From NCBI GenBank assembly GCA_030606485.1, contig JAUWGH010000007.1, positions 120,001 through 152,000 of the forward strand: 32,000 bases of DNA, given 5' to 3'. A program made the position numbers and the translations under genes. Of this stretch, positions 552-30,927 are shown one piece after another (the stretch's first letter is position 1; each line of letters opens with the position of its first letter). The DNA is from Promethearchaeota archaeon. Its GTDB lineage: Archaea > Asgardarchaeota > Lokiarchaeia > Sigyniarchaeales > SOKP01. A model generated the notes under the pieces. It searched no databases, had not been told where the DNA came from, and saw nothing but the letters and a program-made list of their open reading frames with translations.

Positions 552-1289
552 ATAATTCATAGTTTCTATTTAATCCATCAACTTACAGGAATTTGCATGA
601 TTTATAGAAAATATGGAGTGATTGAATTAAATCAAGATCTAGTTTCGGGATTTCTAACTGCCCTAAAGGACTTCGCGAGCGAAATAAGCAAAGGTAAAGG
701 CCAACTCAAGATTGTAGATATGCGACTCTTCAATTTAATCCTTGTTTTTAAAGCGGGCGTTTTAGTGGTGGTTGCAGCTGATAAAAACGATTCTAGAGAA
801 ATCGCCCAAGCGAGACTTGGAGACATAGTGGATGTTTTTATGGAAAAATATTCTGAATACATTGGTGAAGATAATTGGACAGGAGATATTCGTATATTTC
901 AAGGATTTGAAACAATTATTGATAGGATTCTCGAATATGGGAAAGCATCGGAAGTACCTATAAGGATACCTATCTTGAAAATCTATAAAAAGGACTTTGA
1001 GAAGTCACAAAAAAAGATAGCCAAAAAAGGGTTGATTCTTGAAGAAATAGATTTTAGATCAAATATTGAAGAAACTCAAAAACCTGAATGGACCTTAAAG
1101 AGATTACCTAAACAAGTTGTAAGTCAAGGAATGCTTTCAGAACAGGAATATGAGATTTCCCATCTTTGTGACGGATTTCATACTTTAGAAAAAATTGCAG
1201 AAGAAGTGGGTATTCCAGAAAGCAATATAGGAATAATTATTGATGAATTAGATGAGCTTGGATTGCTTGAATTTATAACAATTCAGTAA
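552..1289 (+). CDS. Longin-like domain protein with C-terminal winged-helix-like region; probable ATA start at 552 (track start 597)
   Basis: GFLTALKDFASEI...LILVFKAGVLVVVAAD fits a longin/sigma-adaptin-like fold. The C-term TLEKIAEEVGIPESNIGIIIDELDELGLLEF is wHTH-like. In-frame upstream IIHSFYLIHQLTGIC supplies the first longin strand, with SD AGGTG at 539-543. Confidence 0.7.
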   Translation: MIHSFYLIHQLTGICMIYRKYGVIELNQDLVSGFLTALKDFASEISKGKGQLKIVDMRLFNLILVFKAGVLVVVAADKNDSREIAQARLGDIVDVFMEKYSEYIGEDNWTGDIRIFQGFETIIDRILEYGKASEVPIRIPILKIYKKDFEKSQKKIAKKGLILEEIDFRSNIEETQKPEWTLKRLPKQVVSQGMLSEQEYEISHLCDGFHTLEKIAEEVGIPESNIGIIIDELDELGLLEFITIQ

Positions 1290-1397
1290 TTATTAATAGA
1301 TTTTCAAATTTTAAAATAGATCTATTTTTATCCTAAAATTTTTAAACTTCATTCTTCTTAAATTATTTAAAACTTATATTAAGAAGAGATTATAAAA

Positions 1398-1715
1398 ATG
1401 ACATATATGATTTTCATCTCAACCGTGCCTAATCTTGAAGAAGGAAAGAAAATTGCACGTCTTCTAGTAGAACAAAAAATTATTGCATGCTGTAATATCA
1501 TTCCTAATGTGATTTCAATATATGAATGGGAGGAAAAAATTGAGGAAGACAATGAACTTTTATTAATCATTAAAACCAAAAAAGAAAACAGTAAAAAATT
1601 AATTGAGATTATAAATAGCATACATAGCTATGAAGTTTCTGAATGTATAGGTTTTGATATTACAGAAGGATCAAAGAAATATTTAGATTGGATGGATAAA
1701 ATAATAAAGATTTAA
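1398..1715 (+). CDS. cutA: Divalent-cation tolerance protein CutA
   Basis: IARLLVEQKIIACCNI, SIYEWEEKIEEDNE and HSYEVSEC motifs; 105 aa. Confidence 0.95.
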   Translation: MTYMIFISTVPNLEEGKKIARLLVEQKIIACCNIIPNVISIYEWEEKIEEDNELLLIIKTKKENSKKLIEIINSIHSYEVSECIGFDITEGSKKYLDWMDKIIKI

Positions 1716-1723
1716 TATATCTT

Positions 1724-2563
1724 ATGCAAGTTCCTTGGATTTTTCAAATTGATTGGATTTTTTGGGATACGATTATTATTTTCTTATTAATTATTTTCCT
1801 AATCTCAGTTAAAATTTTTAAGAATACACATCGTTGGAGAAATTTTTTATCGAATCCTTTAATTATGGAAAATAAAACCAAGAATTTTGAAATTCAATGT
1901 GGGGAAAAAGAAATTTTTAGAATTTCCTTCACATTGTTCGAATCTAAAATCAACGATATCGCTGAAAATAATAACAACAAGACTTCAAATCTTCTGATCA
2001 TTTTCAAAAAGAGGAGATATAATACATATCCATATGCAGAAGCTCTTGCTTCAATCGATCTTAAGGTTGTTTTTATAGATTTCAAAAAAGTTAGGAAAGT
2101 TGAAGGTAAAAAACTAGTTAAGATAAAAATTAGTGGAGGATTAATTGATAAAATTTCAAAAGCGATTTATATTCATTTTATTGATATAGGAGATGGTCCC
2201 GAGTACCAAAAAATTGTCTTTCTCTTTCCTAATCTTACTATTCAATTTTTAAAAATCTCTACACTAACAAATTTTTTTGACAAATTTTTTCTAATATTAA
2301 GTAATTTTTCAGAAAATTATGAGATTTTAAAGAACTTTTTAAATCAAGACATAATTGACATAAAGAAACTTTATTTTATTATCCCATTAAAGAGATTATT
2401 AAAACTTGATGAAGATCAATTGAATAAAATCAATAGATTAAAAGATAATTATAAAATACATGAAAAAAATATATTAATTCTTGAAAAATCTTTTAAATCG
2501 TTAAAGAATTTTGAAACAATTATTATTGGCTTTATTTTAAATAATATTTTTAATAAAAAATAA
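1724..2563 (+). CDS. Membrane-anchored hypothetical protein, possibly a degenerate alpha/beta-hydrolase fold
   Basis: N-terminal hydrophobic helix (WDTIIIFLLIIFLISV). YAEALASIDLKVVFIDF resembles the hydrolase LA.G..V...D segment, but there is no GxSxG. Confidence 0.55.
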   Translation: MQVPWIFQIDWIFWDTIIIFLLIIFLISVKIFKNTHRWRNFLSNPLIMENKTKNFEIQCGEKEIFRISFTLFESKINDIAENNNNKTSNLLIIFKKRRYNTYPYAEALASIDLKVVFIDFKKVRKVEGKKLVKIKISGGLIDKISKAIYIHFIDIGDGPEYQKIVFLFPNLTIQFLKISTLTNFFDKFFLILSNFSENYEILKNFLNQDIIDIKKLYFIIPLKRLLKLDEDQLNKINRLKDNYKIHEKNILILEKSFKSLKNFETIIIGFILNNIFNKK

Positions 2564-2587
2564 TAAATATTAACTGAAAAGCGTTCA

Positions 2588-3295
2588 ATGACAAGAGATA
2601 AAATTTCCATAGAATATTCAAATAAGGTTATTTATGATAAAAACCACTGGGGTATATTAGCTCATAAACGAGATAGAGCAAAAAAGATTTTACATATGTT
2701 TTATAAAGAAGGTTTAAACCCTTTAGTGTTTGGGAGTTTAGCACGAGGAGATGTGAAAAAGAGTAGTGATATTGATATAATTTTTCCCGATAAAATTCCT
2801 ACATACAAATTAGAGGTTATTATTGATAAGAATGGAGAATATCTTTTTGCAAAGGATATAATTCAGGCAACTCCGGGAGATACAATTAAGGCAAATATTT
2901 ACTTATCCGAGCAAGAATGTTTAACAGTTCCTTTAACGAAGTTTATGAAAAAGTCTTTTCAATTCTATCAATTTGGCGGTTGTCTTGATTTAGATAAGCT
3001 TTCAAAAAATGAAAGGGTTCCAGGCACAGATAAAAATTTAATATTAAAGATACCAACTAAATACGGTCATAATGAGCTTGAACTTAAAAATAATGAATTA
3101 TATGCTTCGAAATTGTTGAATATTGATCTAGAATTTATACTTCAAAGAATACGCGTTTTAACTAGAAGGGATAAAGTTGGCAGAACTGGAGTTTTCCTGC
3201 ATAAAAATCTAAATTTAGAGGATAATTTTGAAAAAGTGTTAAAGGATATTAGTGATCGAAATTCTTTTGTGAGAAGGATACTTATGAAGGGCTGA
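2588..3295 (+). CDS. Nucleotidyltransferase (pol beta superfamily, archaeal COG2413-like)
   Basis: FGSLARGDVKKSSDIDI motif; C-term RDKVGRTGVF is typical of this archaeal family. Confidence 0.88.
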   Translation: MTRDKISIEYSNKVIYDKNHWGILAHKRDRAKKILHMFYKEGLNPLVFGSLARGDVKKSSDIDIIFPDKIPTYKLEVIIDKNGEYLFAKDIIQATPGDTIKANIYLSEQECLTVPLTKFMKKSFQFYQFGGCLDLDKLSKNERVPGTDKNLILKIPTKYGHNELELKNNELYASKLLNIDLEFILQRIRVLTRRDKVGRTGVFLHKNLNLEDNFEKVLKDISDRNSFVRRILMKG

Positions 3296-3307
3296 GGTTA
3301 AATAAGA

Positions 3308-4438
3308 TTGACACGAGCAGAATTATTAAAAACTAAAGGTGAATCTTATTCTATTCGTGGGATTCCTAAAGGATGTAAATATTGTATAAAGGGACAAAAA
3401 GTCGTTCTATTCCTTAATGGAATTTGTCAGAAACCTGATCATTGTTCTTGGTATTGTCCTATCTCAAAAGAAAGGAAAAATAAAGAAATAACATACGCTG
3501 ATGAAATTCAGGTTAAAGATTATAAAGAAATATTAAAAGAAATTAGTCTTGTAAAAGCCAAGGGTGTTTCAATAACTGGTGGAGAACCTCTTGCCCCTAA
3601 TAATACAAATAAGACCTTGGATTACATAATTTTTTTAAAAAAAGAAATGGGATCTGATTTTCATATACATCTATATACGAATGGAGTTAATTTTAATGAA
3701 CAATTAGCGCAAAAATTATCCTTGGCAGGATTAGATGAGATAAGATTTCATCCTTCTAAGGAGAATTGGATTAAAATTAAATATGCGTTAAATAAAAGTA
3801 TGTCTGTGGGTGCAGAAGTTCCGGTAATTCCTGATAAAAAGAATTTGAAAACTCTAAAAGAATTTATCTTTTATTTAGATAAAATTAATTGTGATTTTAT
3901 CAATTTAGATGAATTTGAAATGTGTTTTCCAAATAGTGAATCTCTTAAATCTAAAGGATTTTTATTGAAAGAAGGAACAATTGCATCTGTTAAAAACAGC
4001 GAAGAATCAGCTCTCAAACTAATTAAAAGTGTAGCAAAAAAAACAAAGTTAAATCTTCACTATTGTCCCATTATTTTAAAGGATCATTATCAATTAAAAA
4101 ATCGATATAAACGAAGAGCAAGAAGTATTAAGGCGCCCTATGAAGTAGTTAATAATGCAGGTCTTCTTATTTATGCACAAATTGAAGGTACAGCCGTATC
4201 TCTGAGGAAGTTTCGCGATAATGTCATATCAAAATTAAACTTACCTAAGGGTTTCTATTCTTTTAAAGAATTTAAAATTAATTTACCATGGTATATTCCA
4301 GTTTACCAAAAATTTGTTGAAGAATTAAAAAAATACGAATTAGAGTGCTATATTATTGAAGGAATACCATTTCGCGATAAATATTTTCAAATAACTGAGA
4401 AAACACCAATAAACTTAATTAATATTATTAAAGAATGA
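3308..4438 (+). CDS. Radical SAM protein (archaeal COG2108-like)
   Basis: GCKYCIKGQKVVLF, Cys cluster CQKPDHCSWYC, ITGGEP, HIHLYTNG, LDEIRFHP. TTG start after SD GAGGT. Confidence 0.88.
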   Translation: MTRAELLKTKGESYSIRGIPKGCKYCIKGQKVVLFLNGICQKPDHCSWYCPISKERKNKEITYADEIQVKDYKEILKEISLVKAKGVSITGGEPLAPNNTNKTLDYIIFLKKEMGSDFHIHLYTNGVNFNEQLAQKLSLAGLDEIRFHPSKENWIKIKYALNKSMSVGAEVPVIPDKKNLKTLKEFIFYLDKINCDFINLDEFEMCFPNSESLKSKGFLLKEGTIASVKNSEESALKLIKSVAKKTKLNLHYCPIILKDHYQLKNRYKRRARSIKAPYEVVNNAGLLIYAQIEGTAVSLRKFRDNVISKLNLPKGFYSFKEFKINLPWYIPVYQKFVEELKKYELECYIIEGIPFRDKYFQITEKTPINLINIIKE

Positions 4439-4920
4439 TATATTTATTAGTAAAGTTACTCATGAAATTGCCATTATCAATGATTATAAAAGATGTTACA
4501 AATAAAGATATAGAGGAGATCTCTTCTTTAGAAGAAAAAATATTCGGAATAGATGCTTTTTCTACGGATCTTCTAAAAAAAATACTTAAAAATAAATTAT
4601 TGTTCATAAAATTAGTAGATGAAACTGAAAAAATCCTTGGATTTTCTATTTCAATTGAGGGTGTAAAAAATAGGGCAAATATTATAAATCTTTTAATAAG
4701 AGAAGAGTACCAACATCAAGGATTAGGCTCCTTTCTATTAAAAAGGACATTAAAAGAAATAAAAAATAAAAATAAATTTAAATCAATTATTCTAAATGTA
4801 AAAACTGACAATGATATCGCAATTCATTTATATCAAAAGTATGGTTTTAAAGTAATCAAAATAATTGAGAACTATTATGAATCTGGAGCCTCAGCAAATT
4901 TGATGAAACTCAAGTTGTAG
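4435..4920 (+). CDS. rimI: GNAT N-acetyltransferase, RimI/Ard1 family
   Basis: YQHQGLGSFLL acetyl-CoA motif, LNVKTDNDIAIHLYQKYGF, NYY. The start may be a later ATG. Confidence 0.88.
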   Translation: MIYLLVKLLMKLPLSMIIKDVTNKDIEEISSLEEKIFGIDAFSTDLLKKILKNKLLFIKLVDETEKILGFSISIEGVKNRANIINLLIREEYQHQGLGSFLLKRTLKEIKNKNKFKSIILNVKTDNDIAIHLYQKYGFKVIKIIENYYESGASANLMKLKL

Positions 4921-5005
4921 TTGATTTAAAAATACCTAGATAATTATAAATATACCGATTTTGTATTATCATAATATATAAAAAATAGATATAGGGATAA
5001 GGAAA

Positions 5006-5182: not shown

Positions 5183-5246
5183 AAAATATTCACTATATTT
5201 ATTCCTAGATGAATAAATTAAACCTTTATGAGCTTGAGAAATTCTT

Positions 5247-11607: not shown

Positions 11608-12714
11608 TTGGAAGAAATGGAACAGCATAAGCAATTATCCATTGAAGTAGATAAAAATCTTATTAATAAAGTGTTTGAAAATGTAGAGATGCGCTATATT
11701 CTATTATATCTTTACATACTTCGAAATGATATGTTAAAAAATTTATCAGATGAATCTTGGCTCAATTCATTTAAACGATTAATGAATTTGGATGAAATTC
11801 TCAAAAGCGATTTGGAATTATATTCAAATAAAGAATTGACCGAAATTTTAATAGATTTAAGAATAATTAAAAATTTAAGATCTTTGAAAGAACTTGAAAA
11901 GAAAGAAGATGATTTTTTAATTAAAATTTTGGAACCAATAAGAATTGAAGAGAATAAAATAATTGTTCCAGAAAATACATTATTTCCAATTATCTCAAAA
12001 AACTTTACATTTTTAACAAAACGAAATTTTCACTATGCCATCTCAAGGTTAAAGGGTATTATGTGCGAAAATAGTGATGTAATTCATCCTTTTCTATTTG
12101 AAATTGGTAAGGAAAATTATTTATTAGCAGACGATCTGTATGAAATTTTAGATGATTTAGGAAATCCATATCAAACGATAAAGGTCGAAACCACAATTAG
12201 TGAATTTTATAACAGATTTAAAGAATTATTAGAAAAAGTCTCCAGTTTCATAGAACTATATGATCCTTTATTAAATAAAAAATCACATATCAGAATTATC
12301 AAAAAGGCAATAGACAATAATAAAGTCATTCTTGAATATATGCAAGAAAACGTAAAAAAATTGCCTGCTAAATTTGATCTGGAGGAAGTTACAGATAAAG
12401 AAAATGAAATTTTTAAAAAATGGCATTTAATACTTATAAATTTACTTAAAAAACGGAATAGATTAAATGAAATTGATGAAGAATTAAGTAAAATTAAAAA
12501 TTACTATTCTGGAAAGGGAAAAAAATATACCTATTTAGAATTTATTACTAAAATATCATACAATGAAGATAATATCTTAAACCAAATTAAAGATAAATTA
12601 ATAATATTAAGAGAAGAATTAGTAAATATCAAAAAAGAAGTATCTAAATTTGAAAAAAATGAAATAAAGCTGCTTAATTTAGATTATGAACGATATAGAA
12701 TTATAAATGAGTAA
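11608..12714 (+). CDS. Hypothetical protein with central winged-helix-like segment and C-terminal coiled coil
   Basis: ENTLFPIISKNF-LTKRNFHYAISRL...FLFEIGKENYLLA gives a helix-helix-wing pattern, followed by heptads. The start could be ATG 11617. Confidence 0.75.
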   Translation: MEEMEQHKQLSIEVDKNLINKVFENVEMRYILLYLYILRNDMLKNLSDESWLNSFKRLMNLDEILKSDLELYSNKELTEILIDLRIIKNLRSLKELEKKEDDFLIKILEPIRIEENKIIVPENTLFPIISKNFTFLTKRNFHYAISRLKGIMCENSDVIHPFLFEIGKENYLLADDLYEILDDLGNPYQTIKVETTISEFYNRFKELLEKVSSFIELYDPLLNKKSHIRIIKKAIDNNKVILEYMQENVKKLPAKFDLEEVTDKENEIFKKWHLILINLLKKRNRLNEIDEELSKIKNYYSGKGKKYTYLEFITKISYNEDNILNQIKDKLIILREELVNIKKEVSKFEKNEIKLLNLDYERYRIINE

Positions 12715-12730
12715 ATAAGAAAGGTGCTCG

Positions 12731-13702
12731 ATTATTAAATGCCCTGTTTGTAACGTTGAGATGGAACAACTCGTTCAAGAAATATTTCAATGTCCAAAGT
12801 GTAAAAAAATAATTAAAGGACGGATTAAAGAAATTGAAAAAAAGAAAGAAGTTGCTATTGGAAAAATTCAAGAGGGAGATTATTTTCATAACAATGCTAG
12901 TTTAAATAAGAAATATGAAATTTGTGAAAAAGGAATTACCATTTCTAAATCCCCAAATAGGTGGGTGGCAGCATTACTCTGTCATAGCTCCTATTTAAGC
13001 AGTTCTAAATATATTAGACTTAGTTGGTGGAAAAAAGAAATAAATACGCATGCAGGCTTTTTCAAAATAACTGAATCTGCAGTATTGAATAATTTAATCA
13101 AAACCTTAGAAAAAATAAATTATTCATTTGACGAATATTGGGGTAATTTTAAAGGATTTGAAAAAAAAAAAAAAGAAACAAAAGAAAAAGCAATTCAAAA
13201 TAAACGCTTAAAAATTCTAAAATATAGAATTCTCGAAAAAAAAATTTGCCCGAATTGTAATAAAAAATTAAAATTTACCAAAAGAAAAACACATTATGAA
13301 TGTGAACATTGTGGTGAGATCATCATCTTGGAATCTCATAATGAACCAATTTTTAATATTGATCCTAAAGATCTCCCATTAGAATTCTCCACAAATTTTC
13401 CTATCAACTTTTACCTCCCCATAGCTGGCATCACTATTAAATGGTTAATGGGAGAATGGAAATCTGTTGTTGTAATATATTCAAATGACAATCCCAATAG
13501 GAAATGGCTAAGATTTTATTCTTGGGAAAGAAATTTACAACAACTATTAAAATACGGATATTATGAAGCTGGTGATGGAGGACAACTATCTTGGACTACA
13601 AAAAAAGGAACAGGCTCACCAAATATTAACGATAAATCAGAAGTCCCTATTTTAATTGATGCTTTAAAAAAATTACAAAAAGAAATAGGTTGGGCTAAAT
13701 AA
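12731..13702 (+). CDS. Tandem (Zn-ribbon + PC4-like) repeat protein; probable ATT start (track start 12761)
   Basis: In-frame upstream IIKCPVCNVE completes the first Zn ribbon with CPKC. The second ribbon is CPNC...CEHC. Two internally similar GITI...W...K.(I/L)R...W...LI.(T/A)L domains follow the ribbons. Confidence 0.75.
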   Translation: MIKCPVCNVEMEQLVQEIFQCPKCKKIIKGRIKEIEKKKEVAIGKIQEGDYFHNNASLNKKYEICEKGITISKSPNRWVAALLCHSSYLSSSKYIRLSWWKKEINTHAGFFKITESAVLNNLIKTLEKINYSFDEYWGNFKGFEKKKKETKEKAIQNKRLKILKYRILEKKICPNCNKKLKFTKRKTHYECEHCGEIIILESHNEPIFNIDPKDLPLEFSTNFPINFYLPIAGITIKWLMGEWKSVVVIYSNDNPNRKWLRFYSWERNLQQLLKYGYYEAGDGGQLSWTTKKGTGSPNINDKSEVPILIDALKKLQKEIGWAK

Positions 13703-13740
13703 GATAAAATTTTATGCAAAAGATTAAGGTGATTAAATAA

Positions 13741-14883
13741 ATGAGTGGGATCGATAATCTTGAATGGGAAAAATTACTTACTGAATTCTCTAAAAATGTT
13801 GATAGATCTATTAAGAAACTAGAAGAAAGAGATATTGATAATATTCCTGGTGCTAAGCAAGCCTTGATCGAACGATTGAAAGTAATGAGAGATTATTTTC
13901 CACAAAATAATGGAGATCTCTTTATAAAATTAATTAATGAGAAAATTCAAAATGCTTTTTTCCCAAAAACTAAAGATCTGGCTGAAGCATTTGAGCTTAT
14001 CATAAAATCTCGCTCTCATGATCAAGATTTTATAATAAATGAATTAATTAACGGTTTTATATCATCAAGAAGTAAAACAATCGCTTTAAATGTTCAAGGA
14101 ACTATTATTGATAGATTGGTTGAGGCGTTTAGTAAAGGTCCCGATTTTCAAATTGTAGATCATCAATTTTACGCAATGTTTTCTGATCCGAATAAAGCAC
14201 GTAAATATGTAAAAGAGAGTTTGCAAGATCTTGTGGATTTATTCGGTTTAGAAGCAAAAGAATTAATTGTTGAAAAAGATAAAAGGAAAAGCGAGCGAAA
14301 AGTTTATACTTTTTACACGTTTCCCGAAAAAATATTAGAAATCTTAGAAGGTGAATATGTTGATACTGATGAAGTACTCGGAGAAAAAAGGGTTTCAGAA
14401 AAATTCGATAAAACAGTTTTCATATCTTTGTTTTTAGCCAATATCTCAGTTCACAGAGATAATTTAAAGAAAATAGGTGGGGTCTATACTGTAAACGGCA
14501 TCTGTAACATATTTAGTTTGATTTTTTTGATCTCACTTTTGCCCAAAGTGGATGTAATTGAGACCCATCCAATTCTTAGAGACCCTTCATACGATTCCGA
14601 TAGGATGAGCGTTATTCCCAAATCTTGGATGATGAAAGAGGTGTTGTTAGACTTATTGGAGCCGCTCATGAAGATTTTCGCCTATCGATTGGGTGGTGGA
14701 GAGTGGTTGAAATCAATTGACACAACAGAAGCTAGAAGAAAGATCCACAACCAAACTCGCTTTCTATTGAAGGATATAAACCGCTGGATTCTCGGGGAGT
14801 TGTGTCGTGTCGAAATTGATATATTCGTGAGTATAGGCTCAATATTCGCCGAAGTAATAGTAGATACTTCCAGTGAAGATTAA
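13741..14883 (+). CDS. Hypothetical protein, central region possibly MAGE/kite-like
   Basis: ATG after SD AAGGTGA. ESLQDLVDLFGLEAKEL and KTVFISLFLANI resemble MAGE/Nse3 WH-A and WH-B segments (inference). Confidence 0.75.
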   Translation: MSGIDNLEWEKLLTEFSKNVDRSIKKLEERDIDNIPGAKQALIERLKVMRDYFPQNNGDLFIKLINEKIQNAFFPKTKDLAEAFELIIKSRSHDQDFIINELINGFISSRSKTIALNVQGTIIDRLVEAFSKGPDFQIVDHQFYAMFSDPNKARKYVKESLQDLVDLFGLEAKELIVEKDKRKSERKVYTFYTFPEKILEILEGEYVDTDEVLGEKRVSEKFDKTVFISLFLANISVHRDNLKKIGGVYTVNGICNIFSLIFLISLLPKVDVIETHPILRDPSYDSDRMSVIPKSWMMKEVLLDLLEPLMKIFAYRLGGGEWLKSIDTTEARRKIHNQTRFLLKDINRWILGELCRVEIDIFVSIGSIFAEVIVDTSSED

Positions 14884-14908
14884 ATTAAGAATTTAGAGGA
14901 AGATTTTT

Positions 14909-16165
14909 ATGGTTAGAGAAAAATGGACAGACATTTTAGCAAGATACTTAACATATTTAAGTCATCTGATTCCAATCCTCAAAGAAACAAAAAAAACCGT
15001 CCAAGATATGAGTTTGGAAGTGATGATGACCGTAAAAATTTTTGATAAGATTAAAATGGAAGAAGAAAAAAGATTAGTGAAGAAAGTGAGGGCTTTATCC
15101 GAATTCTCGGCATATTATAGAGGAGAAATATTTGAATATATCAAAAATTTTATCTACAAATATTCTGAGGATTTAGAATCTATAGATATTAAAGATTATC
15201 TAATTGAATTTTTTGATGAATGCATAAATGCTTTAGAAATATTAACGAATATTACAAATCCCGATCAAGAAAAGTTAGATTCCACATATTTATATCTTCT
15301 TTACAAATATTTAGAAGATCGATTATTACCCATTGGTAAAAATTTTCAAGAAATCTATACAAAGTTGATTAAGACATCAGAAAATTGGTATGAATGTCAT
15401 AGGTATATGATGATCCCTCAGACATATTATCGAGAAACTGTGGATAACCCTGATTTTTTCGAAATTCCTGGTATTTCTCCAAAGTTATACCAAATAATTA
15501 ATAATATAACCTCTTTATACAACTTGGATCCTAATTATTATCCTTGTCCTGAAGATTCTAACAAAGAAATTCCAGTAGTCTTGATTAATGATGTTTTTGA
15601 AGCATTTATTGATAATATTGCTCATGAAGAGCAAGAAGCAATTGAAAAAATTTGTGAACGCTTAGGATTAAGAGTTCTAGATGGGATTTTTCTTGCTCCC
15701 AAGTATGATTTTATAGATGTGTTAATTAAACATGATTTCATAAGAGAGAATAAACAATCTGATGGCAAGATTAGGTTGATACCTCAATTCAGTAATGAGA
15801 CTCTAATTTTAAGTTATCTTACCTTCGTTTCTTTCCGTCGAGGTTTTTTATCTAAAGAATTAATTAATTGGATTTCTATGACATTTGCATTTATTATTTT
15901 TTCAACTATTTTAAAATCTCAATTAAGTGATCATAATATTTTCTACCCGATTTTTACTAGTTTAAAAACTCAAGAAAAAGTAATACCTTATATGATGAAA
16001 CTTCTATGCTTTAATAATTATTTAAAATTAGATAGGATGAAAATCCGGGATTCTGTCCAATACAGAAAAGAGATTTTTAATTTTGCAGGTTCTAGCATAG
16101 ATTGTATTAAACAACTAATTTTAGATTTAAGTGAATATTTAAATGAAATAATAAAAAAAAAATAA
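14909..16165 (+). CDS. Hypothetical helical protein, 418 aa
   Basis: ATG after SD GAGG; possible WH segment DFIDVLIKHDFIRENKQSDGKIRLIP. Confidence 0.8.
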   Translation: MVREKWTDILARYLTYLSHLIPILKETKKTVQDMSLEVMMTVKIFDKIKMEEEKRLVKKVRALSEFSAYYRGEIFEYIKNFIYKYSEDLESIDIKDYLIEFFDECINALEILTNITNPDQEKLDSTYLYLLYKYLEDRLLPIGKNFQEIYTKLIKTSENWYECHRYMMIPQTYYRETVDNPDFFEIPGISPKLYQIINNITSLYNLDPNYYPCPEDSNKEIPVVLINDVFEAFIDNIAHEEQEAIEKICERLGLRVLDGIFLAPKYDFIDVLIKHDFIRENKQSDGKIRLIPQFSNETLILSYLTFVSFRRGFLSKELINWISMTFAFIIFSTILKSQLSDHNIFYPIFTSLKTQEKVIPYMMKLLCFNNYLKLDRMKIRDSVQYRKEIFNFAGSSIDCIKQLILDLSEYLNEIIKKK

Positions 16166-16184
16166 AGAAGGGGTGTAAGAAAAA

Positions 16185-17261
16185 ATTACATATTCAGATG
16201 ATGAAATTAAAGAAAGGCTTGACAAGTATGGAACGGTTTATTTACCAAATGAAATATTAGAGAATGTTGATGATATATTGGGAAATGAGGTTCTAAAGGA
16301 AAGGCTTGAAGATTTTTTCAGTTCGCTAAAAAGATATAGTGAAGTTGTTGAAAAATTGAAAAAGACGAAATTAGTTCCAAATTTAACTGTCCTCCTATAT
16401 GGGCCACCTGGAACTGGAAAAACTTCATTAACTCGAGCATTTGCAAAGGAATTTGATATCCCATTGTGTGTAGTGGAGTCTGACAGATTAGTTTCTGCAC
16501 TATTAGGTGATACCGTTAAAAATATTAGAAAAGTAGTGGAATTATCAGCTCAGATTGCGGAAGAAAATGGAGCTTTTATATTATTTTTTGATGAAATTGA
16601 CGCGATTGCATCCGAAAGATCGAATATTCACGAAGTAGGCGAAATTAAAAGAGCTGTAATATCTTTCTTACAAATAATTGATAAAATAAATTACTTTGGA
16701 ACACCATTAGCAATTATAGGTGCTACTAACCATCAAGACCAATTAGATTCTGCAATATGGAGAAGATTCACTTTTCATTTGAAATTTGATTTTCCTTCAT
16801 TTCATCTCAGGAAAAAAATAATTGAGTCCTTTATTAATAAAATTAGTAGCGCAAAAATTGGAGTAGATGATGTAATTCTTGGTAGTTTAAACAAAGAGTA
16901 TGAGTTATTAAAAACTAAGGAAGAAAAATTAAAATCTTTAATGAGTAAAGAGAAATCCATACTAGATTCGAATGCATTATGGGATGACAAAAAAATTATC
17001 GAAAATAGAGGAATTTTATTTTCAACGCGTGGATACACAGGTGCAGATTTAGAGCGTGGAGTGAGAGTTGCTCTGTTTAAAGCATTAAAATCTGACATTT
17101 TAACTTATGAAAATTTCGTCCATTCCTTAGAATTAGTAGGAGGTACTAGAATCCATGTTGAACAACAATATTTTTTGAGTGCTTCTGAAAGAAAATATTC
17201 CGGGGATAAAAAAATATTAAGAATAAACCGTAATAATCTTGAAGGTCCTCGTGAAATTTAA
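16185..17261 (+). CDS. Single-domain AAA+ ATPase (classical AAA clade); probable ATT start (track start 16278)
   Basis: Walker A GPPGTGKT, Walker B ILFFDEID, SRH IIGATNHQDQLDSAIWRRF, YTGADLE. The N-linker ENVDDILG lies partly upstream of the track start. SD AGGGGTG is 9 nt before ATT 16185. Confidence 0.93.
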   Translation: MTYSDDEIKERLDKYGTVYLPNEILENVDDILGNEVLKERLEDFFSSLKRYSEVVEKLKKTKLVPNLTVLLYGPPGTGKTSLTRAFAKEFDIPLCVVESDRLVSALLGDTVKNIRKVVELSAQIAEENGAFILFFDEIDAIASERSNIHEVGEIKRAVISFLQIIDKINYFGTPLAIIGATNHQDQLDSAIWRRFTFHLKFDFPSFHLRKKIIESFINKISSAKIGVDDVILGSLNKEYELLKTKEEKLKSLMSKEKSILDSNALWDDKKIIENRGILFSTRGYTGADLERGVRVALFKALKSDILTYENFVHSLELVGGTRIHVEQQYFLSASERKYSGDKKILRINRNNLEGPREI

Positions 17262-17323
17262 TAATTAATATATCCAAAAATTTCCTGTTGATTATATAAA
17301 AATAATAATTAAAAAATCGAACG

Positions 17324-18391
17324 ATGGAATCAGAGAATATAATCTTTTCTGTAGAAAGAATAAAAGAATTAACTAATTCTATAGATACAATTCAAGGAAA
17401 ATTAAATTTAATTAATAAGTTATATCTCATTTATAAAGAAGCACTAAAAAATTTACTCAAAAAACCAAATCTAATGGAGAATGACAGAATAAAATTTTTT
17501 AATGACTTAGATAACTTATTAGAAGCAATCTATTCAAAATTATCCAAAAACTCTGAATTTAACTTAGAAAATTGGTTATTATTTAAAGATTTACTATTAT
17601 CTCAGCATATACTTACAATAAAAAACATTTTAACAGAAAAAAAATTTTCTCAAGAATCTCTAAAAAAAGTTGGTATTTCATTAATTAAAAACAAGAGAGT
17701 ATCATCTTTTTTAGAAAAAATAAGTTTTATTTTTTCACTCGATATTGATTTTTGGGAATTAATAGTTAATGCATTAAAAAATAATCCTGATTTTTTAAAA
17801 ACCATAAATAAAATAAAAAAATTTTGTCAAAATGAGATGGAACGACTATTAAATATTGAACTAAATAAAATTCCTAAAAACATTGACTATAAAATTATTA
17901 ATGAGTTTAAAAAAGAATTCAAAAAAAAAAATATTTCTTTTAAAGAATTCATGATAACTTCAAAATCCAGATTTCCTAAAAAGAAATTTGCCCGAGAAAA
18001 GATTACTTTAGAAACTAAAAAGAAAAAGAATGAATTTGATAGATTAAAAGAAAAACAAGATACACGATTCAAATCTTATGATAAATTATTTACTCTTTCT
18101 GAAGACGAATTTCAAAGATTAAAACGTAAAAAAAAAAGAAAAAAATTAGATTCTTCATCAAAATTAGAAAAAAAAGAGCATGCCTCTCCTGATAAAAAAA
18201 AGGAGATAGATAAAAAAAAAGAATCAACCCAAACTCCAAAACAAGATATATTTAGCAGAGAAATAAAAGAAAATATTGAAGATGACATCGATCCTATAGA
18301 AGTGATTAAAAAAAGAAAGCAAAAAAAGGAAGAAGAATTTGAAAAATATTTAAATAAAATTCAGAAAAAAACTAAAAGAGGTTCAGACTAA
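17324..18391 (+). CDS. Hypothetical protein: helical N-half, Lys/Glu-rich low-complexity C-half
   Basis: 355-aa ORF with poly-basic stretches such as KRKKKRKK. Confidence 0.75.
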   Translation: MESENIIFSVERIKELTNSIDTIQGKLNLINKLYLIYKEALKNLLKKPNLMENDRIKFFNDLDNLLEAIYSKLSKNSEFNLENWLLFKDLLLSQHILTIKNILTEKKFSQESLKKVGISLIKNKRVSSFLEKISFIFSLDIDFWELIVNALKNNPDFLKTINKIKKFCQNEMERLLNIELNKIPKNIDYKIINEFKKEFKKKNISFKEFMITSKSRFPKKKFAREKITLETKKKKNEFDRLKEKQDTRFKSYDKLFTLSEDEFQRLKRKKKRKKLDSSSKLEKKEHASPDKKKEIDKKKESTQTPKQDIFSREIKENIEDDIDPIEVIKKRKQKKEEEFEKYLNKIQKKTKRGSD

Positions 18392-19953
18392 TTAATTCTA
18401 ATTCATCTATAATAACAATTAAAGATTTTTCAGTGGAGATAAAAAATAAATTTAATATTATTCAAGGCAAATTTCTTTCTCAGGATTTAAATCAACTTCA
18501 ATTAGGAAATTATATCTCCCTTCTTGATGATATTCCAAAAATTAACTTAGAAAAGTTACAAATTTTATATAAAAAAAATTCAAAAGGACAGAAAAATCTG
18601 ATTGACAATATTAATTTTATTGAAATTATAGCAAAATATACTCAAATAACTCAAAAAGATATTGAATTTTTAGATAAATATCTCTCTTTTTTAGAAAGTT
18701 GTATTTCACTCTTAAAATTAAACCAGCTCAATCTTGAAAAGAAAAAATTAAAAACCGAACTAAAAATTGCCCAAGAAAGAAATAAATCAGCAGAAATTGC
18801 TGCTAAAATAACTCTATTAAATAAATTAAATGAATCGATTAATGAATATCATACTAGATTAAAACTTTTTGAAGAGGATTTTTTATCCATCAAAAATCAA
18901 AAAAAAATGCTTGAATTAAATCTCGAGAATTTAAAAAAAACACAAATTATATTGAAAAAAGAACAAAAGGACATTTTTAATCAAATTAATATTCTTACAC
19001 GAGAAGAAGAAAACCAGAGTGATAATCAAAATAAAAAAATTGAAACTTTAAGGAAAAATGCAAAAATTTTAAGAGATAAAATTAACAATCTCAAGCAAAA
19101 AATTGAAAATTCCCAATATAAATTAAATCAAAATATGCCAAAATTTAAAGAATTTGATAAAATTTATCATAACTTAAAAGAAAATCTTGAAATTGATAAA
19201 AAAAAAATGAAAAATCTTCAAATGGAATTAGAAGAAGTTATTGATTTAGATAAATTGGATGAAGAAACAGAATATGGTTTAAAAGAACTATCTTATATAA
19301 GGCCGATAAGCTTAATCAAATCAAGTATTAATAACATCACTAAAGAAATAAAAAAAATTGAAAGTTTCAATCATAAGTATTTTAAAAATGAAAATGATCT
19401 CTTAATAAAGGATTTAGAGCAGTTTAAATCCAATTTAGACGACTTTTTTTCGAAAGAGTTGAAAGAATTCGATATTAATGAGCTTAAAAGCAAAATAAAA
19501 TCTTTAAATAAATTAGGTATTTGGCTATATAAGTTCCAAAAATTACTAAATATTTTTTTGGAAACGATTAATTTAAAAATCTCTATTGATTTTTTTTTTA
19601 ATTTGACACCAAATTTTGCTAAAAATAGTCAGATTATTATAAATTTCAAACGTGTTAAGGAAGAAGCTGTCAAATATGATAATTTGACTACTCCTGAGAA
19701 GGTATTTTTTATTATATGTTTTTATTTAACCATTGAAAGCCTTAAAAATAAGAGAAACATCATTTTCACAAATCTTTCAATACCTAAGGATTATAACAAA
19801 AAAGGTTCTATTTTTAGAACTTTAACAAAAATTATGCCCGTTTTTAATGAAAGTCCAGATTTAAAGGAGAAATCATTAACTTTTCTAATTTCTGGATTTA
19901 AACTATCGAAAGATATCAAAAATGTTCAATTATATAACATAAATAATACTTAA
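18391..19953 (+). CDS. SMC-like coiled-coil protein with degenerate (inactive) ABC-ATPase head; probable ATT start (track start 18433)
   Basis: N-term IITIKDFSVEIKNKFNIIQG resembles the SMC head strands without a P-loop. A long coiled coil follows. C-term LTTPEKVFFIICFYLTI...IIFTNL aligns by eye to LSGGEK...ILDEI. Confidence 0.7.
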   Translation: MNSNSSIITIKDFSVEIKNKFNIIQGKFLSQDLNQLQLGNYISLLDDIPKINLEKLQILYKKNSKGQKNLIDNINFIEIIAKYTQITQKDIEFLDKYLSFLESCISLLKLNQLNLEKKKLKTELKIAQERNKSAEIAAKITLLNKLNESINEYHTRLKLFEEDFLSIKNQKKMLELNLENLKKTQIILKKEQKDIFNQINILTREEENQSDNQNKKIETLRKNAKILRDKINNLKQKIENSQYKLNQNMPKFKEFDKIYHNLKENLEIDKKKMKNLQMELEEVIDLDKLDEETEYGLKELSYIRPISLIKSSINNITKEIKKIESFNHKYFKNENDLLIKDLEQFKSNLDDFFSKELKEFDINELKSKIKSLNKLGIWLYKFQKLLNIFLETINLKISIDFFFNLTPNFAKNSQIIINFKRVKEEAVKYDNLTTPEKVFFIICFYLTIESLKNKRNIIFTNLSIPKDYNKKGSIFRTLTKIMPVFNESPDLKEKSLTFLISGFKLSKDIKNVQLYNINNT

Positions 19954-20484
19954 TTGAGAAAGAGAACAATGAATAATACAAATACAAACAAAAATGATAA
20001 TTTAGTGAAAAAAATTTCCAAAATTATTCTCATTAATGAAAAAAAAATGATAAGGGAAAGAGATCTTATTGAAATGTGCTCAAATCTAGAAAATTTTAAT
20101 GATATTATCAAAAAAGTACACAATAATCTAAAAAATATTGGATTTGAATTAGTGAAAACCTCGTACCTAGAAGAAAAATATTACATCTTGACAACTGAAG
20201 GTAAAGAAAAAGCCTTATCCCCTATTCATTATGGAATTCTCGCAATAATTATTGCTTTAAATAATGAAATAGGTGAAAATTTAAATTATTTCGAGTTAAA
20301 GAATATTCTAAAAGATGTATGGGAAAATGTTGAATATTTAATAAAAAATAATTATTTAGCTCAAATAAAGAGTAGAGATTATCATCTAATTAAAATTACT
20401 CCTATAGGTAAAGGTGTTTTAAAAAACATAATTTCTGAAATTAATTTAAAAAAAATTTTAGAACTTTTTGAAAAGACAAATTAA
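19954..20484 (+). CDS. Tandem winged-helix protein, kite (Nse3/MAGE/ScpB/MksE)-like
   Basis: FNDIIKKVHNNLKNIGFELVK...YYILT, then YGILAIIIAL and VEYLIKNNYL...IKITPIG. It abuts the SMC-like gene with 0 nt spacing. Confidence 0.65.
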   Translation: MRKRTMNNTNTNKNDNLVKKISKIILINEKKMIRERDLIEMCSNLENFNDIIKKVHNNLKNIGFELVKTSYLEEKYYILTTEGKEKALSPIHYGILAIIIALNNEIGENLNYFELKNILKDVWENVEYLIKNNYLAQIKSRDYHLIKITPIGKGVLKNIISEINLKKILELFEKTN

Positions 20485-27219: not shown

Positions 27220-27305
27220 TGTTTAAAATACTATAAATAAAATAAAATAAATAAGTGCTTTATATTAAATATACAGATAGAAAAAAGAGAGTAACTTTTA
27301 TTTAA

Positions 27306-28310
27306 ATGAATGTTCCAAATTTTTATTCAAATGTAATAACTCAATTAAAATTATTATTAGAAAATAATGGTTTCACAACTTATTTACTAAAATCACTTAA
27401 AGAAAAATTTTGTTTTGACATTCTTGCGAAAAATGATGCTTCTCTAATAGTTATAAAAATTATTTCTAATATTGATAATATTAGCGAAGATTTGCTGGAT
27501 GAATTAAAGTTTTTTTCTAAAATTGTACAAGCAATTCCTATTATTATCGGAGAAAAAAATCGACGTTCAAAACTAGAGAATAATACTATTTATATAAGAA
27601 AAAATCTACCAATCATAAATGTTGAAACTTTCAAGTTAATAATACACAATAAAGTTTTCCCCTATATCCTTGCAAAAAAAGGCGGAGGAACAATTTTCTT
27701 AGATGGAAATAGATTAAGACTAATGCGAGAGGAAAAGGAAGTTTCTCGAAAAAACTTTTCTGACATGATTGGAATCACCAAAAGGTCATTATGTTCCTAT
27801 GAAAGAGGAGTAATGAGAACTTCAATTGAAACAGCAAATAAAATTCAAAAAATTTTTGACGATACAATTATAAGGAAAATTAATATATTTAATTGGAAAT
27901 TTCAGGTTGACATTAACGAATTTCTTGACCTGGATCAAGATAGGACTGAATTCCAAGAGCAATTAGAGGGTATTTTAAAAGATATTGGTTTTTTTACTTT
28001 CTGGGCCAAAGATAAGATTATTCCATATGATCTTTTTATCACATCTAAAAATTTAAAATCATTTGAAAAAATTGATGATTTTTATCCTGTTTGTTTTTCA
28101 ATTAATCAAACTCAGAAAGTTAATAAACCAAAAATAGTGGATTTAATAAAAATGTCTCAAATTTTACAGAAAAAATATCTTCATATTGTTGAATCTTACA
28201 AAACATCAAATTTGCCAGTTAATAAGATGCCAGTTATTCAAATAAAAGATCTTGAAAAAATAGATGACGAAGAAGAATTCAAAGAGTTTGTAAAGGAATT
28301 AAAATTATAA
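27306..28310 (+). CDS. Archaeal Cro/C1-type HTH regulator with restriction-endonuclease-like N-domain (COG1395-like)
   Basis: FDILAKN...VIKI, IPIIIGE, LDGNRLRLMREE...GITKRSLCSYERG. Confidence 0.88.
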   Translation: MNVPNFYSNVITQLKLLLENNGFTTYLLKSLKEKFCFDILAKNDASLIVIKIISNIDNISEDLLDELKFFSKIVQAIPIIIGEKNRRSKLENNTIYIRKNLPIINVETFKLIIHNKVFPYILAKKGGGTIFLDGNRLRLMREEKEVSRKNFSDMIGITKRSLCSYERGVMRTSIETANKIQKIFDDTIIRKINIFNWKFQVDINEFLDLDQDRTEFQEQLEGILKDIGFFTFWAKDKIIPYDLFITSKNLKSFEKIDDFYPVCFSINQTQKVNKPKIVDLIKMSQILQKKYLHIVESYKTSNLPVNKMPVIQIKDLEKIDDEEEFKEFVKELKL

Positions 28311-28311
28311 A

Positions 28312-28980
28312 ATGGCTAAATTAATTTTAGGTATAGATGAGGCTGGTAGAGGTTGTTTAATCGGCTCAATGATTATTTGTGGTGTCCTTTTTGATGAAAA
28401 CAAACATAAATATTTAGAAGAAATTGGTGTAAAAGATTCTAAAAAATTATCTCCAAGAAGAAGAACAGAATTATGCAAGTTAATTGTAGAAAACTGTGTA
28501 AAATATAAAGTTATTGATGTTTCGGTAAAAGAGATTGATGATAGACTCAATAAAAACATAACTCTGAATGAATTGGAGTTGGAAAAATTTGTTGAAATTA
28601 TTAATTCTCTAAAGCCAGATGAGGCATTTCTTGATGCAGTAGATGTAAATGAAGAACGATTTAAAATTTCTTGTAAGAAAAGAGTAAATTATAAAGGGCT
28701 TAAAATTGTTTCTAAGCATAAAGCTGACGATCTTTTTCCAATAGTCTCTGCAGCTTCAATTGTAGCTAAAACAATTAGAGATAAAAAAATTTCGGAATTA
28801 AAAATTAAATATGGTGATCTTGGATCTGGTTATACAAGTGACGTAAAAACTATTGAATTTGTTAGAAATTGGATTAAAGAAAAGAAATCTATTCCTCCCT
28901 TTATTAGAAAAAGCTGGGATACTACAAAGAGACTTTTGGAAGAAGAATTATATAATAAAAAAATAAGTGAATTTCTCTAG
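28312..28980 (+). CDS. rnhB: Ribonuclease HII
   Basis: GIDEAGRG, VKDSKKL, HKADDLFPIVSAASIVAK, GSGY. Confidence 0.98.
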   Translation: MAKLILGIDEAGRGCLIGSMIICGVLFDENKHKYLEEIGVKDSKKLSPRRRTELCKLIVENCVKYKVIDVSVKEIDDRLNKNITLNELELEKFVEIINSLKPDEAFLDAVDVNEERFKISCKKRVNYKGLKIVSKHKADDLFPIVSAASIVAKTIRDKKISELKIKYGDLGSGYTSDVKTIEFVRNWIKEKKSIPPFIRKSWDTTKRLLEEELYNKKISEFL

Positions 28981-28988
28981 AAATTTAT

Positions 28989-29678
28989 TTATTTTTCCAA
29001 GATGACTCCTAGATGTCCGCCAGCGTAAGAATCTATATGAATTTTTTCTAAGACCTTTAAATTGGCACTTTTTAGAGTATTTAATTCATTTTGAAAAATC
29101 TCTTTTGGTTTTTCTGTACTTTTGATGGATTGCGATTTAATAAATAATATTATCTTTCCGCCTTCTTTTAAGTATAAGTTAGCATTTCTTATTGCAATAT
29201 TTGCCTGATCAGGGTGTGAAACATCTTGATAAATTAAATCCACTGGCTTATAAATTAACATTGAATATTCCTGTGGATTTAATGCATTTCCAAGAATAGG
29301 TATTATATTCTTTCGAGATGAAGTATTTTGAATTAATTGGCGTAAGCTTCTTTCAGAAATTTCAACACCAAATATTAATCCATTAGAAACTATATCAGAA
29401 ATGTGAGAAATCGTAGTTCCAGTAGATGTTCCTAGATATAAACAGGTTGTTTTTCTTTCTAAATATATCTTTTGACTCCCTTTTAAAATTAAAGCTGCTA
29501 ATTTACTTCGATATGGATCCCATAATCGAAATTCTTCATCCATTTTTAGAATTATTTTTTCTCCATAAATTACATTACCTTTATCCAGATTTTTGGTATA
29601 TAATTTTAATTTTTCAGAAGGACCCGATATAAATACATTTACAAATTTAGGATGAGGGCGGATATTTGGTTGAATCAA
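28989..29678 (-). CDS. flpA: Fibrillarin-like rRNA/tRNA 2'-O-methyltransferase
   Basis: VYG-like VIYGE, FRLWDPYRSKLAA, LYLGTSTGTTISHISD, IYQDVSHPDQ. Confidence 0.97.
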   Translation of the reverse strand: MIQPNIRPHPKFVNVFISGPSEKLKLYTKNLDKGNVIYGEKIILKMDEEFRLWDPYRSKLAALILKGSQKIYLERKTTCLYLGTSTGTTISHISDIVSNGLIFGVEISERSLRQLIQNTSSRKNIIPILGNALNPQEYSMLIYKPVDLIYQDVSHPDQANIAIRNANLYLKEGGKIILFIKSQSIKSTEKPKEIFQNELNTLKSANLKVLEKIHIDSYAGGHLGVILEK

Positions 29679-29712
29679 ATTAAATTCATCTCTCTAGAGA
29701 TTGAAGAAATTA

Positions 29713-30927
29713 TCATCTCTTTTTACTTCTTTTCTTTTTTGATAAATTCTGAGACTTTTTTTGACTCTTTTTTGGTGGATTTGGAAATTTTCGTTTGATT
29801 TCTTCAATCTTTTGATTAACTTCATTTAATAATTGATCTCCTAATAGTTTATCGGAAAAATAATCTAATTTTGCAGCTAATGATATTTTACCAGATAATA
29901 ATCGAGAAATTTTCCCCCTATGCCAAGGTTTTGCAGAACGAATTCCATGCCATTGAAATATAATACCATGCTTTGGAGATTTTGCACTTGATTTTAAGGA
30001 TCTAAATAATGCCCTTTCTGCTCCCAATAACTGAATAGTTGAGGCTGGTAGCATGGCTAACTTTTTAATACTCCCGGCAGAAGCCACTAATTTAGCTCCT
30101 ATTAATGCTCCTACAAGCGTTGTCAAATTAGGGGTTGCTCCATTCATTAATTCATCTAAATCATTTTCCAATCGCGTTCGATATAACTCAATAGATAGAA
30201 TTAAATCGGCATATTTCTGAATATTATCAAGGTCAATCTCCGCACCCATTGAATTTTGAGATTGAGTGATGATCTCGTTCAATGTATAATCTTTAAAAGA
30301 AAATTTTTCTTGAAGGTTCTCTTTAGTAAAATTCTCTCGGTTTCCAATAATTGAAATTAATTTACTAAATAACACATGATCCTCAATAATTTTGTCAGTT
30401 AATTCCGGGAAATGTAATCCATACCACTCTCTAATACGTGTGCTAAATAAATTTATAGTTTTCTTTAGTAAATCAAGAGTATTTATCATTTGAATAATTA
30501 ATATATCATCTTTTCCTGAAGCCCGACTTATTGATTTTTTTGCAAGACTTTCCCCTAATTTTTTCGATCGTTCTCTTATTTGTTCCTCCGTTATTTGAAC
30601 TCCATATTTATTAACACTATTTATCAAATTTAATTTAAACGATTGAATAAGAGGACACGGAACCTCATGTTTTGCATTAAAATTAGAATTCTGATTAATT
30701 AAATTACTTAAATTTGAATTATCAACAATAAATTCATTATACCCATTTTCTGATAACTCCTCTAATAAATATATAAATTCTTGAGGTAGATTATTTTCTC
30801 CTATGAGTCCATAGAATTCAATTATTTTATTAATTTCTCCATTAAAATCTCGAAAATTAATTGGATTCTCTAATTCATCAATTACAAAAATCCCAACTAC
30901 AGTATCTGCAATATAACACTTAATAAT
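29713..30927 (-). CDS. nop5: C/D box RNP protein Nop5 (Nop56/58); ATT start, about 404 aa (track gives only the C-terminal 304 aa)
   Basis: Nop domain REWYGLHFPEL, PASTIQLLGAERALF, PKHGIIF. The frame stays open 100 codons upstream of 30627 (IIKCYIADTVVGIFVIDE...) with no in-frame ATG/GTG/TTG. Confidence 0.95.
   Translation of the reverse strand: MIKCYIADTVVGIFVIDELENPINFRDFNGEINKIIEFYGLIGENNLPQEFIYLLEELSENGYNEFIVDNSNLSNLINQNSNFNAKHEVPCPLIQSFKLNLINSVNKYGVQITEEQIRERSKKLGESLAKKSISRASGKDDILIIQMINTLDLLKKTINLFSTRIREWYGLHFPELTDKIIEDHVLFSKLISIIGNRENFTKENLQEKFSFKDYTLNEIITQSQNSMGAEIDLDNIQKYADLILSIELYRTRLENDLDELMNGATPNLTTLVGALIGAKLVASAGSIKKLAMLPASTIQLLGAERALFRSLKSSAKSPKHGIIFQWHGIRSAKPWHRGKISRLLSGKISLAAKLDYFSDKLLGDQLLNEVNQKIEEIKRKFPNPPKKSQKKSQNLSKKKRSKKR

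Follow-up and report, generated by a model that had tools for sequence, protein, structure and literature searches.

Mitochondrial initiation at AUA, AUU and AUC is covered by NCBI tables 2 and 5, and NCBI table 11 lists ATT, ATC and ATA. AUU starts are known from bacterial infC (IF3) and from E. coli pcnB, where their use depends on a fidelity factor (PMC4705826). As far as that source relates the work of Hasenohrl et al., a Sulfolobus solfataricus complex of 30S, aIF1A, aIF2 and Met-tRNAi (initiator tRNA) binds mRNA with an AUU codon led by a Shine-Dalgarno (SD) motif without aIF1, and aIF1 blocks this (PMC4705826). Autoregulation of eIF1 through poor AUG context is described for eukaryotes (PMC4705826). 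Reviews give AUG, GUG and UUG as the only archaeal start codons (PMC7531240), and in Deinococcus deserti non-canonical starts were reportedly verified by proteomics (PMC2830850). Here, start sites were analysed in a 32,000-nucleotide stretch of a Promethearchaeota archaeon of the Lokiarchaeia. Five of its genes, encoding a longin-domain protein, a Zn-ribbon protein, an AAA ATPase, an SMC-like protein and Nop5, are very probably translated from AUU or AUA behind strong SD motifs, in a family-wide habit that would rarely also include CUG or AUC elsewhere in the genome. A literature search, with subscription journals mostly outside its coverage, returned no paper that describes AUU/AUA initiation as widespread or lineage-wide in archaea, and none on a non-AUG start of aIF1.

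Source genome and conventions

The window is the whole stretch analysed, positions 120001-152000 of contig C6 of genome G000. This genome comprises 3.75 Mb in 13 contigs, with 29% G+C, and is 100% complete by scoring. Metagenomic DNA runs from cold seeps, marine sediments and vents, belonging to 8 studies, contain the window stretch; no RNA run that contains it was listed. Comparisons were made with G001, an independent same-genus assembly whose DNA is ~95% identical to that of G000 (~5% of bases near the five sites differ); with G014, another genus of the same Lokiarchaeia family (713 kb sampled); and with two sister-family genomes, G026 (31% G+C, 400 kb sampled) and G024 (328 kb sampled). 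ATG, GTG and TTG are referred to as canonical starts, and an in-frame codon upstream of the first of them as pre-canonical. The 16S rRNA of G000 ends in ...GGATCACCTCCT at its 3' end, and the SD consensus is AGGAGGTGATCC; the SD motifs of the five genes are thus true anti-SD complements.

Start sites of the five window genes

On direct reading, each of the five genes has an in-frame stop a few codons ahead of an ATT or ATA. The first canonical codon follows 10 to 100 codons later, inside or past conserved protein sequence. An earlier note on this DNA, made from the letters alone, had reported both conserved N-terminal sequence upstream of the canonical starts and an SD-like motif before ATT/ATA in all five genes. 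The first observation was borne out by direct reading, Pfam and orthologue alignments, and the second by motifs that lie 4-10 nt upstream and are complementary to the genome's own 16S 3' end. The note's figure of about 5 of 35 genes was right in its numerator; the window holds 33 long open reading frames (ORFs), of which these starts account for 15%. The sites are as follows.

539-543, + strand: longin SD motif AGGTG, complementary to the 16S 3' end
552-1289, + strand: longin-domain gene, read from ATA 552; ATT 555 also possible
12721-12726, + strand: Zn-ribbon SD motif AAGGTG, at offset -11 to ATT 12734, the genome-wide optimum
12731-13702, + strand: Zn-ribbon protein gene, read from ATT 12731 or ATT 12734
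16169-16175, + strand: AAA ATPase SD motif AGGGGTG, 9 nt before ATT 16185 and just past the stop of the upstream gene (16163-16165)
16185-17261, + strand: AAA ATPase gene, read from ATT 16185; in-frame TAA 16176-16178
18377-18382, + strand: SMC-like SD motif AGAGGT; 5-nt SD match GAGGT at offset -11 to ATT 18391
18391-19953, + strand: SMC-like gene, read from ATT 18391; ATA 18409 and ATA 18412 are alternatives
30932-30938, - strand: nop5 SD-like motif AAGGGGA, anti-SD pairing over 5 bp with one G:U
29713-30927, - strand: nop5, read from ATT 30927 or ATT 30924; in-frame TAA 30930-30928

The longin frame carries a TAA at 531-533 and no ATG, GTG or TTG from there until ATG 597. The first G of its GGTG is 12 nt before ATA 552, inside the offset range of ATG starts, and the G014 orthologue has a TTG start aligned on ATA 552 (LIHNLYLIHQ vs IIHSFYLIHQ). 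In the Zn-ribbon gene, which has an in-frame TAA at 12716-12718, the first CxxC knuckle (12740-12751) is upstream of the first canonical codon, ATG 12761. Pfam zinc-ribbon models match residues 4-31 of the extended reading, and the orthologues place TTG (G014) and ATG (G026) ahead of the same CPxC.

For the AAA ATPase the first canonical codon is TTG 16278, 31 codons after ATT 16185, and these 31 codons can be aligned to the N-terminal sequences of the orthologues in G014 and G026, both of which start with ATG. The earlier note had identified the AGGGGTG motif of this gene correctly and placed it one base too far left. It had also named in-frame stops for four genes and, for the SMC-like gene, overlap with the preceding gene. 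The stops and the overlap (ATT 18391 with the upstream TAA, 18389-18391) were found as described, except that the SMC-like gene has an in-frame TAA as well, at 18373-18375. Its first canonical codon is GTG 18433. AGAGG and ATT are kept in five same-genus assemblies. Orthologues in other genera start at ATG or TTG (G011, G006, G007, G008) or at ATA/ATT (G009, G005, G010), in each case 8-20 residues upstream of the first beta-strand motif and upstream of the GTG.

The longest pre-canonical stretch is that of nop5, where TTG 30627 is the first canonical codon, 100 codons past ATT. The archaeal Nop5 N-terminal domain (Pfam PF21572) matches residues 3-116 and is lost if translation starts at TTG 30627. 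In four same-genus assemblies (protein 95-99% identical) the site invariably reads AAGGGGAC TAA ATT ATT AAG TGT. Thirteen other genera of the family have ATG AAA TGT TAT, with ATG exactly on ATT 30924 (MKCYI vs IKCYI). The ATT-bearing genus has gained an SD motif, and the ATG-bearing genera of the family are without one. The N-terminal peptide predicted from the ATT reading is (M)KCYIADTVVGIFVIDELENPINFR.

Genome-wide SD spacing

The test set consisted of 3,170 long ORFs with an upstream stop, in which 5-nt SD matches were located relative to in-frame pre-canonical codons. AAA, AAT, TTA, TAT and TTT were used as composition-matched controls. ATG starts showed SD offsets from -15 to -9, with a mode of -11. 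Pre-canonical codons at the -11 peak comprised 19 ATT and 21 ATA, compared with 7 AAA, 2 AAT, 0 TTA, 3 TAT and 1 TTT. Expressed as rates, an SD at the optimal offset preceded 40 of 2,378 pre-canonical ATT/ATA codons and 13 of 6,902 control codons (odds ratio 9, P = 4e-14). The corresponding start counts at -11 were ATG 60, TTG 20, GTG 9 and ATC 2, giving 42 for ATT, ATA and ATC together vs 89 for the canonical codons; ATT and ATA are each commoner than GTG at this best spacing. The excess over controls amounted to ~50, plus ~13 from the hidden -10 offset (offsets -10 and -13 were masked when the SD's own GTG was in frame). ATT and ATA were concentrated at -11 and -10 and nearly absent at -12 (6 vs 73 ATG), which might mean that weak codons need the tightest SD placement.

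The residues that follow these codons resemble true N-termini. Serine was the second residue after 27.5% of SD-led ATT/ATA and 19.9% of SD-led ATG codons, compared with 6.8% after internal ATT/ATA and 5.9% after SD-less pre-canonical ATT/ATA (P = 6e-5). Pfam domains open at residues 2-14 of the ATT/ATA reading in an SDR protein, ribosomal protein S4e, two small GTPases (Ras/Arf), an NTP-transferase, ETF-alpha, PfkB and a cupin. In nearly all of these Pfam-checked genes the first canonical codon is 20-48 residues in (5 in the NTP-transferase). Ten genes beyond the five in the window have no canonical start between the upstream stop and conserved N-terminal residues.

Two other measures were tried and rejected. 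SD density in pre-canonical vs deep coding sequence was uninformative because coding DNA is richer in G, and per-codon SD rates that included codons beside canonical starts were swamped by the neighbours of true starts.

For 60 ORFs, the SD (AGGTG or GGTGA) contains the GTG that is the first canonical codon in frame. Gene finders would take this GTG as the start and add three spurious residues; the true start is likely three codons on, at ATG, ATA, ATT or TTG. The codon at -10 behind these 60 GTGs was ATG in 13, ATA in 9, ATT in 7 and TTG in 6. A probable CTG start was seen in G000 at C10 (+), ~786592, where GAGGAG and TAA are followed by CTG CCA CCT AAA, aligned with ATG CCA in G014. Some enrichment behind SD motifs was also seen genome-wide for CTG and ACG.

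Orthologue comparison and lineage spread

Independently of SD motifs, orthologue pairs were examined for aligned residues at least 5 positions upstream of the first canonical codon. Among 333 G000-G014 pairs, 23 G000 genes (6.9%) and 31 G014 genes (9.3%) were positive. Among 88 G000-G026 pairs there were 10 positives in G000 and 0 in G026. When the contexts were read, ~11 of the 23 G000 positives against G014 were clear, as were 6-7 of the 10 against G026. An SD of at least 5 nt preceded all ~14 clear cases ascertained by orthology vs ~14% of ATG starts. Since every clear case has such an SD, the habit is strictly SD-dependent. Judged from these alignments, it probably affects roughly 3-7% of genes, or ~100-200 per genome, a rate below that of the window. 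One positive, a SelD-like gene, was rejected as false because its 'upstream stop' is a selenocysteine (Sec) TGA.

The SelD-like frame opens at ~19443 of G000 contig C1 (+). G000 and G014 both keep a TGA in this frame, with SCKLG encoded after it. A tRNA-Sec was found by ARAGORN at C2:189902-190018 (-), and G000 appears to decode selenocysteine.

The offset peak in G014 contained ATT 7, ATA 4 and ATC 1 vs ATG 12 and TTG 11, with controls at 0-1. The offset counts in G026 were ATG 14, ATT 2 and ATA 0, and the whole spacing range in G024 gave ATG 22, ATT 2 and ATC 1, with few SD-led starts of any kind. From these counts, the habit is common to at least two genera of the Lokiarchaeia family, with little or none of it in the two sister-family genomes. 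Canonical and near-cognate starts replace each other both ways among genera. In the window, the gene at 14909 has ATG, and its G014 orthologue (C7, ~20159) has AAGGAGAGG followed by ATT, with no canonical start for 27 codons. The earlier proposal of SD-driven starts across the lineage was thus extended to the whole 3.75-Mb genome and to a second genus; that the machinery is 'relaxed' was its inference, and no molecular change was identified.

Genetic code, initiator tRNA and initiation factors

A variant code with AUA/AUU as Met was ruled out by internal codons, which align with Ile. In orthologue alignments internal ATA corresponded to Ile in 46% and to Met in 3.8%, and internal ATT to Ile in 50% and to Met in 2.6% (overall for ATA, ATT and ATC, 46-50% Ile and 3-4% Met). 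An altered initiator tRNA was likewise rejected. The initiator found by pattern at C6:44352-44448 (-) has a CAU anticodon, A1:U72, a GGG/CCC stem and an intron; a second, intron-interrupted initiator could still exist. Leaderless initiation was discarded in view of the SD motifs in all five genes and in all clear genome-wide cases.

Most tRNA genes carry introns, the initiator included. ARAGORN found 15 tRNA genes without intron settings and 37 with them, and the Rfam tRNA model found 31.

The earlier note had pointed to possible substitutions in aIF1, aIF2 and the initiator tRNA. Nothing abnormal was seen in aIF1 or the initiator tRNA; on general inspection of aligned aIF1 proteins, no lesion specific to the family was obvious. 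The aIF1A, aIF2-alpha, aIF2-beta and aIF2-gamma genes of G000 have ordinary ATG or TTG starts. The start of the aIF1 gene itself is of another kind.

G000:C6:14493-14708, + strand, outside the window: aIF1 (SUI1) gene, locus L100; relatives L098-L122 and L173-L195

No canonical start precedes the CPxC knuckle of the aIF1 ORF in 11 of 13 genera examined in family f1. The conserved context in this family is GGTTGTGA, nine bases, then ATT AAR GAY, with ATC in one genus. ATA is the start in families f5 and f7 and in one f2 genus, and TTG or ATG in other genera. Because a GTG lies inside the SD-like motif, the start is ambiguous (GTG or ATA) in the genus of the window; G008 also has GTG. The comparison suggests that aIF1 would start at ATT, ATA or ATC in most of the class, with a feedback on start stringency like that of infC and eIF1.

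Other features of the window

Eight same-strand genes at 11608-20484 (+) include those of the Zn-ribbon protein, the AAA ATPase and the SMC-like protein. The remaining five products of the run (368, 380, 418, 355 and 176 aa) gave no Pfam match. Orthologues of several genes of the run occur in G014 and G026; those found for the SMC-like gene all belong to the family. The window gave no match in Rfam and tRNA scans. On the other strand nop5 is followed by fibrillarin.

28989-29693, - strand: fibrillarin gene, Pfam-confirmed

Proposed mechanism and alternative explanations

Under initiation at AUU/AUA, the SD:anti-SD duplex would hold the near-cognate codon in the small-subunit P site, where Met-tRNAi (CAU) would pair with the first two bases and the third-base mismatch would be tolerated. 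A strong SD at optimal spacing would offset the weakness of the codon. The protein would begin with Met, often removed before a small second residue. Mutations from ATG to ATT or ATA would have been fixed more often in this AT-rich lineage than in sister lineages, as a result of weak or tunable discrimination by aIF1, and the non-canonical start of aIF1 itself would permit feedback of the infC type. A stronger form of this proposal is that the family evolved a truly loosened third-base check, with SD-led AUN as a regular start class balanced by an aIF1 that has an AUU/AUA/AUC start; we regard this form as possible and rather unlikely.

Several points weigh against initiation at AUU/AUA as a family habit. 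All of its support comes from sequence. About half of the 23 positives in the G014 test are marginal, with 5-9 residues of Lys-rich leader similarity, and the rate is stated as a range because of them. Samples of the sister family were small, at 400 kb and 328 kb, and G024 is too SD-poor for a firm rate. Part of the sharpness of the -11 peak stems from the method, owing to the masked -10 and -13 offsets. The exact start codon among adjacent ATT/ATA codons is ambiguous for the Zn-ribbon, nop5 and SMC-like genes. Finally, aIF1 and the initiator tRNA look normal, which leaves 'relaxed fidelity' without an identified molecular basis.

The alternative that survives best accepts the AUU/AUA starts and disputes only a lineage-specific fidelity. 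Ordinary archaeal ribosomes would start weakly at SD-led near-cognates, and AT bias would have eroded ATG wherever low or SD-compensated output was tolerated. The strong, optimally spaced SD in every clear case, the ordinary look of aIF1 and tRNAi and the G+C content of 29% speak for it. It is less easily reconciled with G026, which has a near-equal G+C content and SD-led ATG, yet shows no positives in the 88 pairs that gave 10 in G000. The presence of ATA/ATT starts in genes that are essential or highly expressed, such as nop5 and that of ribosomal protein S4e, and the excess of each codon over GTG at the best spacing also tell against it. We tentatively keep it as a plausible but less probable account.

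It is very unlikely that the non-AUG starts work only by termination-reinitiation, through coupling to the upstream gene. The overlap of the SMC-like ATT with the upstream TAA would fit coupling, as would the AAA ATPase and Zn-ribbon starts less than 20 nt from an upstream stop. Genome-wide, only 11 of 40 SD-led ATT/ATA starts are less than 30 nt from a same-strand upstream gene; 12 are next to a divergent gene, for 11 the distance exceeds 100 nt, and SD-led ATG starts are spread much alike. The longin gene and nop5, moreover, each head their own transcription unit.

Translation from the downstream ATG, GTG or TTG, with the upstream similarity due to a conserved non-coding leader or to decaying genes, would suit those orthologue-test positives that have only 5-9 residues of Lys-rich leader similarity. 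It would also delete the CxxC knuckle, the Nop5 N-terminal domain, GTPase P-loops, the SDR dinucleotide-binding motif and the S4e N-terminal domain. Orthologues have ATG at the aligned codon, and the genes include essential ones conserved in 4-5 assemblies. Differences between G000 and G001 in the pre-canonical segments are 6/6/13 by codon position, mostly third, as in coding sequence. This explanation is highly improbable.

We give as little credence to recoding, whether by read-through of the upstream stop, by frameshift from an out-of-frame canonical codon (GTG in GGTG) or by RNA editing of AUU/AUA to AUG. In its favour, the upstream in-frame stop is the TGA of GGTGA in many genome-wide cases, and the genome appears to decode Sec, judging by the in-frame TGA of SelD and the tRNA-Sec. 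In four of the five window genes, however, the upstream stop is TAA, with AT-rich non-coding DNA beyond it. Read-through would not need a signal specific to ATT/ATA at SD spacing, and the second-residue profile marks true N-termini. We know of no RNA editing of such a kind in archaea.

Assembly or sequencing errors that turned ATG into ATT/ATA, for which nothing was found in favour, have a negligible probability, as all five start contexts are identical in G001, nop5 and the SMC-like gene keep theirs in 4-5 assemblies, and ~60 further genome-wide cases all lie at SD spacing. The recurrence of the same contexts in independent assemblies excludes assembly error for the five sites and settles the possibility of base errors that the earlier note had raised. 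Among the 40 best-supported differences listed between the window and contigs of four other studies, in rows reaching position 17804, none was at 12731-6 or 16185-7; positions 18391-18393 were judged by cross-assembly comparison (SMC-like gene in five assemblies, and G001).

Consequences for annotation

Prodigal-type callers allow only ATG, GTG and TTG, so ~100-200 proteins per genome would be truncated or mis-started. Mis-annotation of N-termini, as predicted earlier, is found in public Nop5 calls for the genus, which begin 9, ~19 or ~100 residues late. These start with VVGIF (396 aa), MVNPINF (386 aa) and MSNNVKKYG (307 aa), in proteins P0001, P0002 and P0004. Only the Nop domain is present for them in precomputed Pfam; relatives of 65% identity that begin with MKCYIADT or MRCYIADT carry both domains. 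The mis-started set includes eukaryote-signature proteins that are used in arguments on the origin of eukaryotes: longin-domain proteins, Ras/Arf-like GTPases, which lose their P-loop, and Nop5. The Asgard family concerned is widespread in sediment.

AUU/AUA stands behind a third of the best-placed SD sites; such a lineage would offer a natural system for start-codon stringency set by aIF1 and aIF2 and would also inform how this stringency shifted along the line of descent to eukaryotes. The start codon of aIF1 provides a concrete, testable feedback hypothesis.

Comparison with known systems

Mitochondria resemble the present case in having AUN starts in AT-rich genomes. They differ in that they initiate without an SD and read AUA as Met during elongation too; in the present genome ATA inside genes means Ile, and the starts depend on SD. 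With Deinococcus deserti the case has in common that gene finders miss starts of the ATC/CTG type and that evidence was gathered at genome scale. That organism is a bacterium with few such genes and proof at the protein level, whereas many more genes are concerned here, with evidence from sequence only.

The Sulfolobus experiments are closer in kind. Within what is related of them, an archaeal 30S subunit with aIF2:Met-tRNAi can accept SD-led AUU, and stringency is set by aIF1; they used a model mRNA in vitro, and the starts described here belong to natural genes. Eukaryotic eIF1 shares with aIF1, its Asgard homologue, a weak start site in the gene of the fidelity factor itself. The weakness of the eukaryotic site is in its context and not in the codon, and the archaeal loop is only proposed.

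The nearest likeness is to infC and pcnB, in which a near-cognate AUU behind an SD motif is read weakly by the initiator tRNA. As with infC, the gene of the analogous fidelity factor, aIF1, also carries ATT, ATA or ATC. The bacterial genes are isolated regulatory exceptions, whereas here several per cent of genes would be concerned, housekeeping genes included. The host, too, is an archaeon with the eukaryote-type factors aIF1 and aIF2, in which autoregulation is only proposed.

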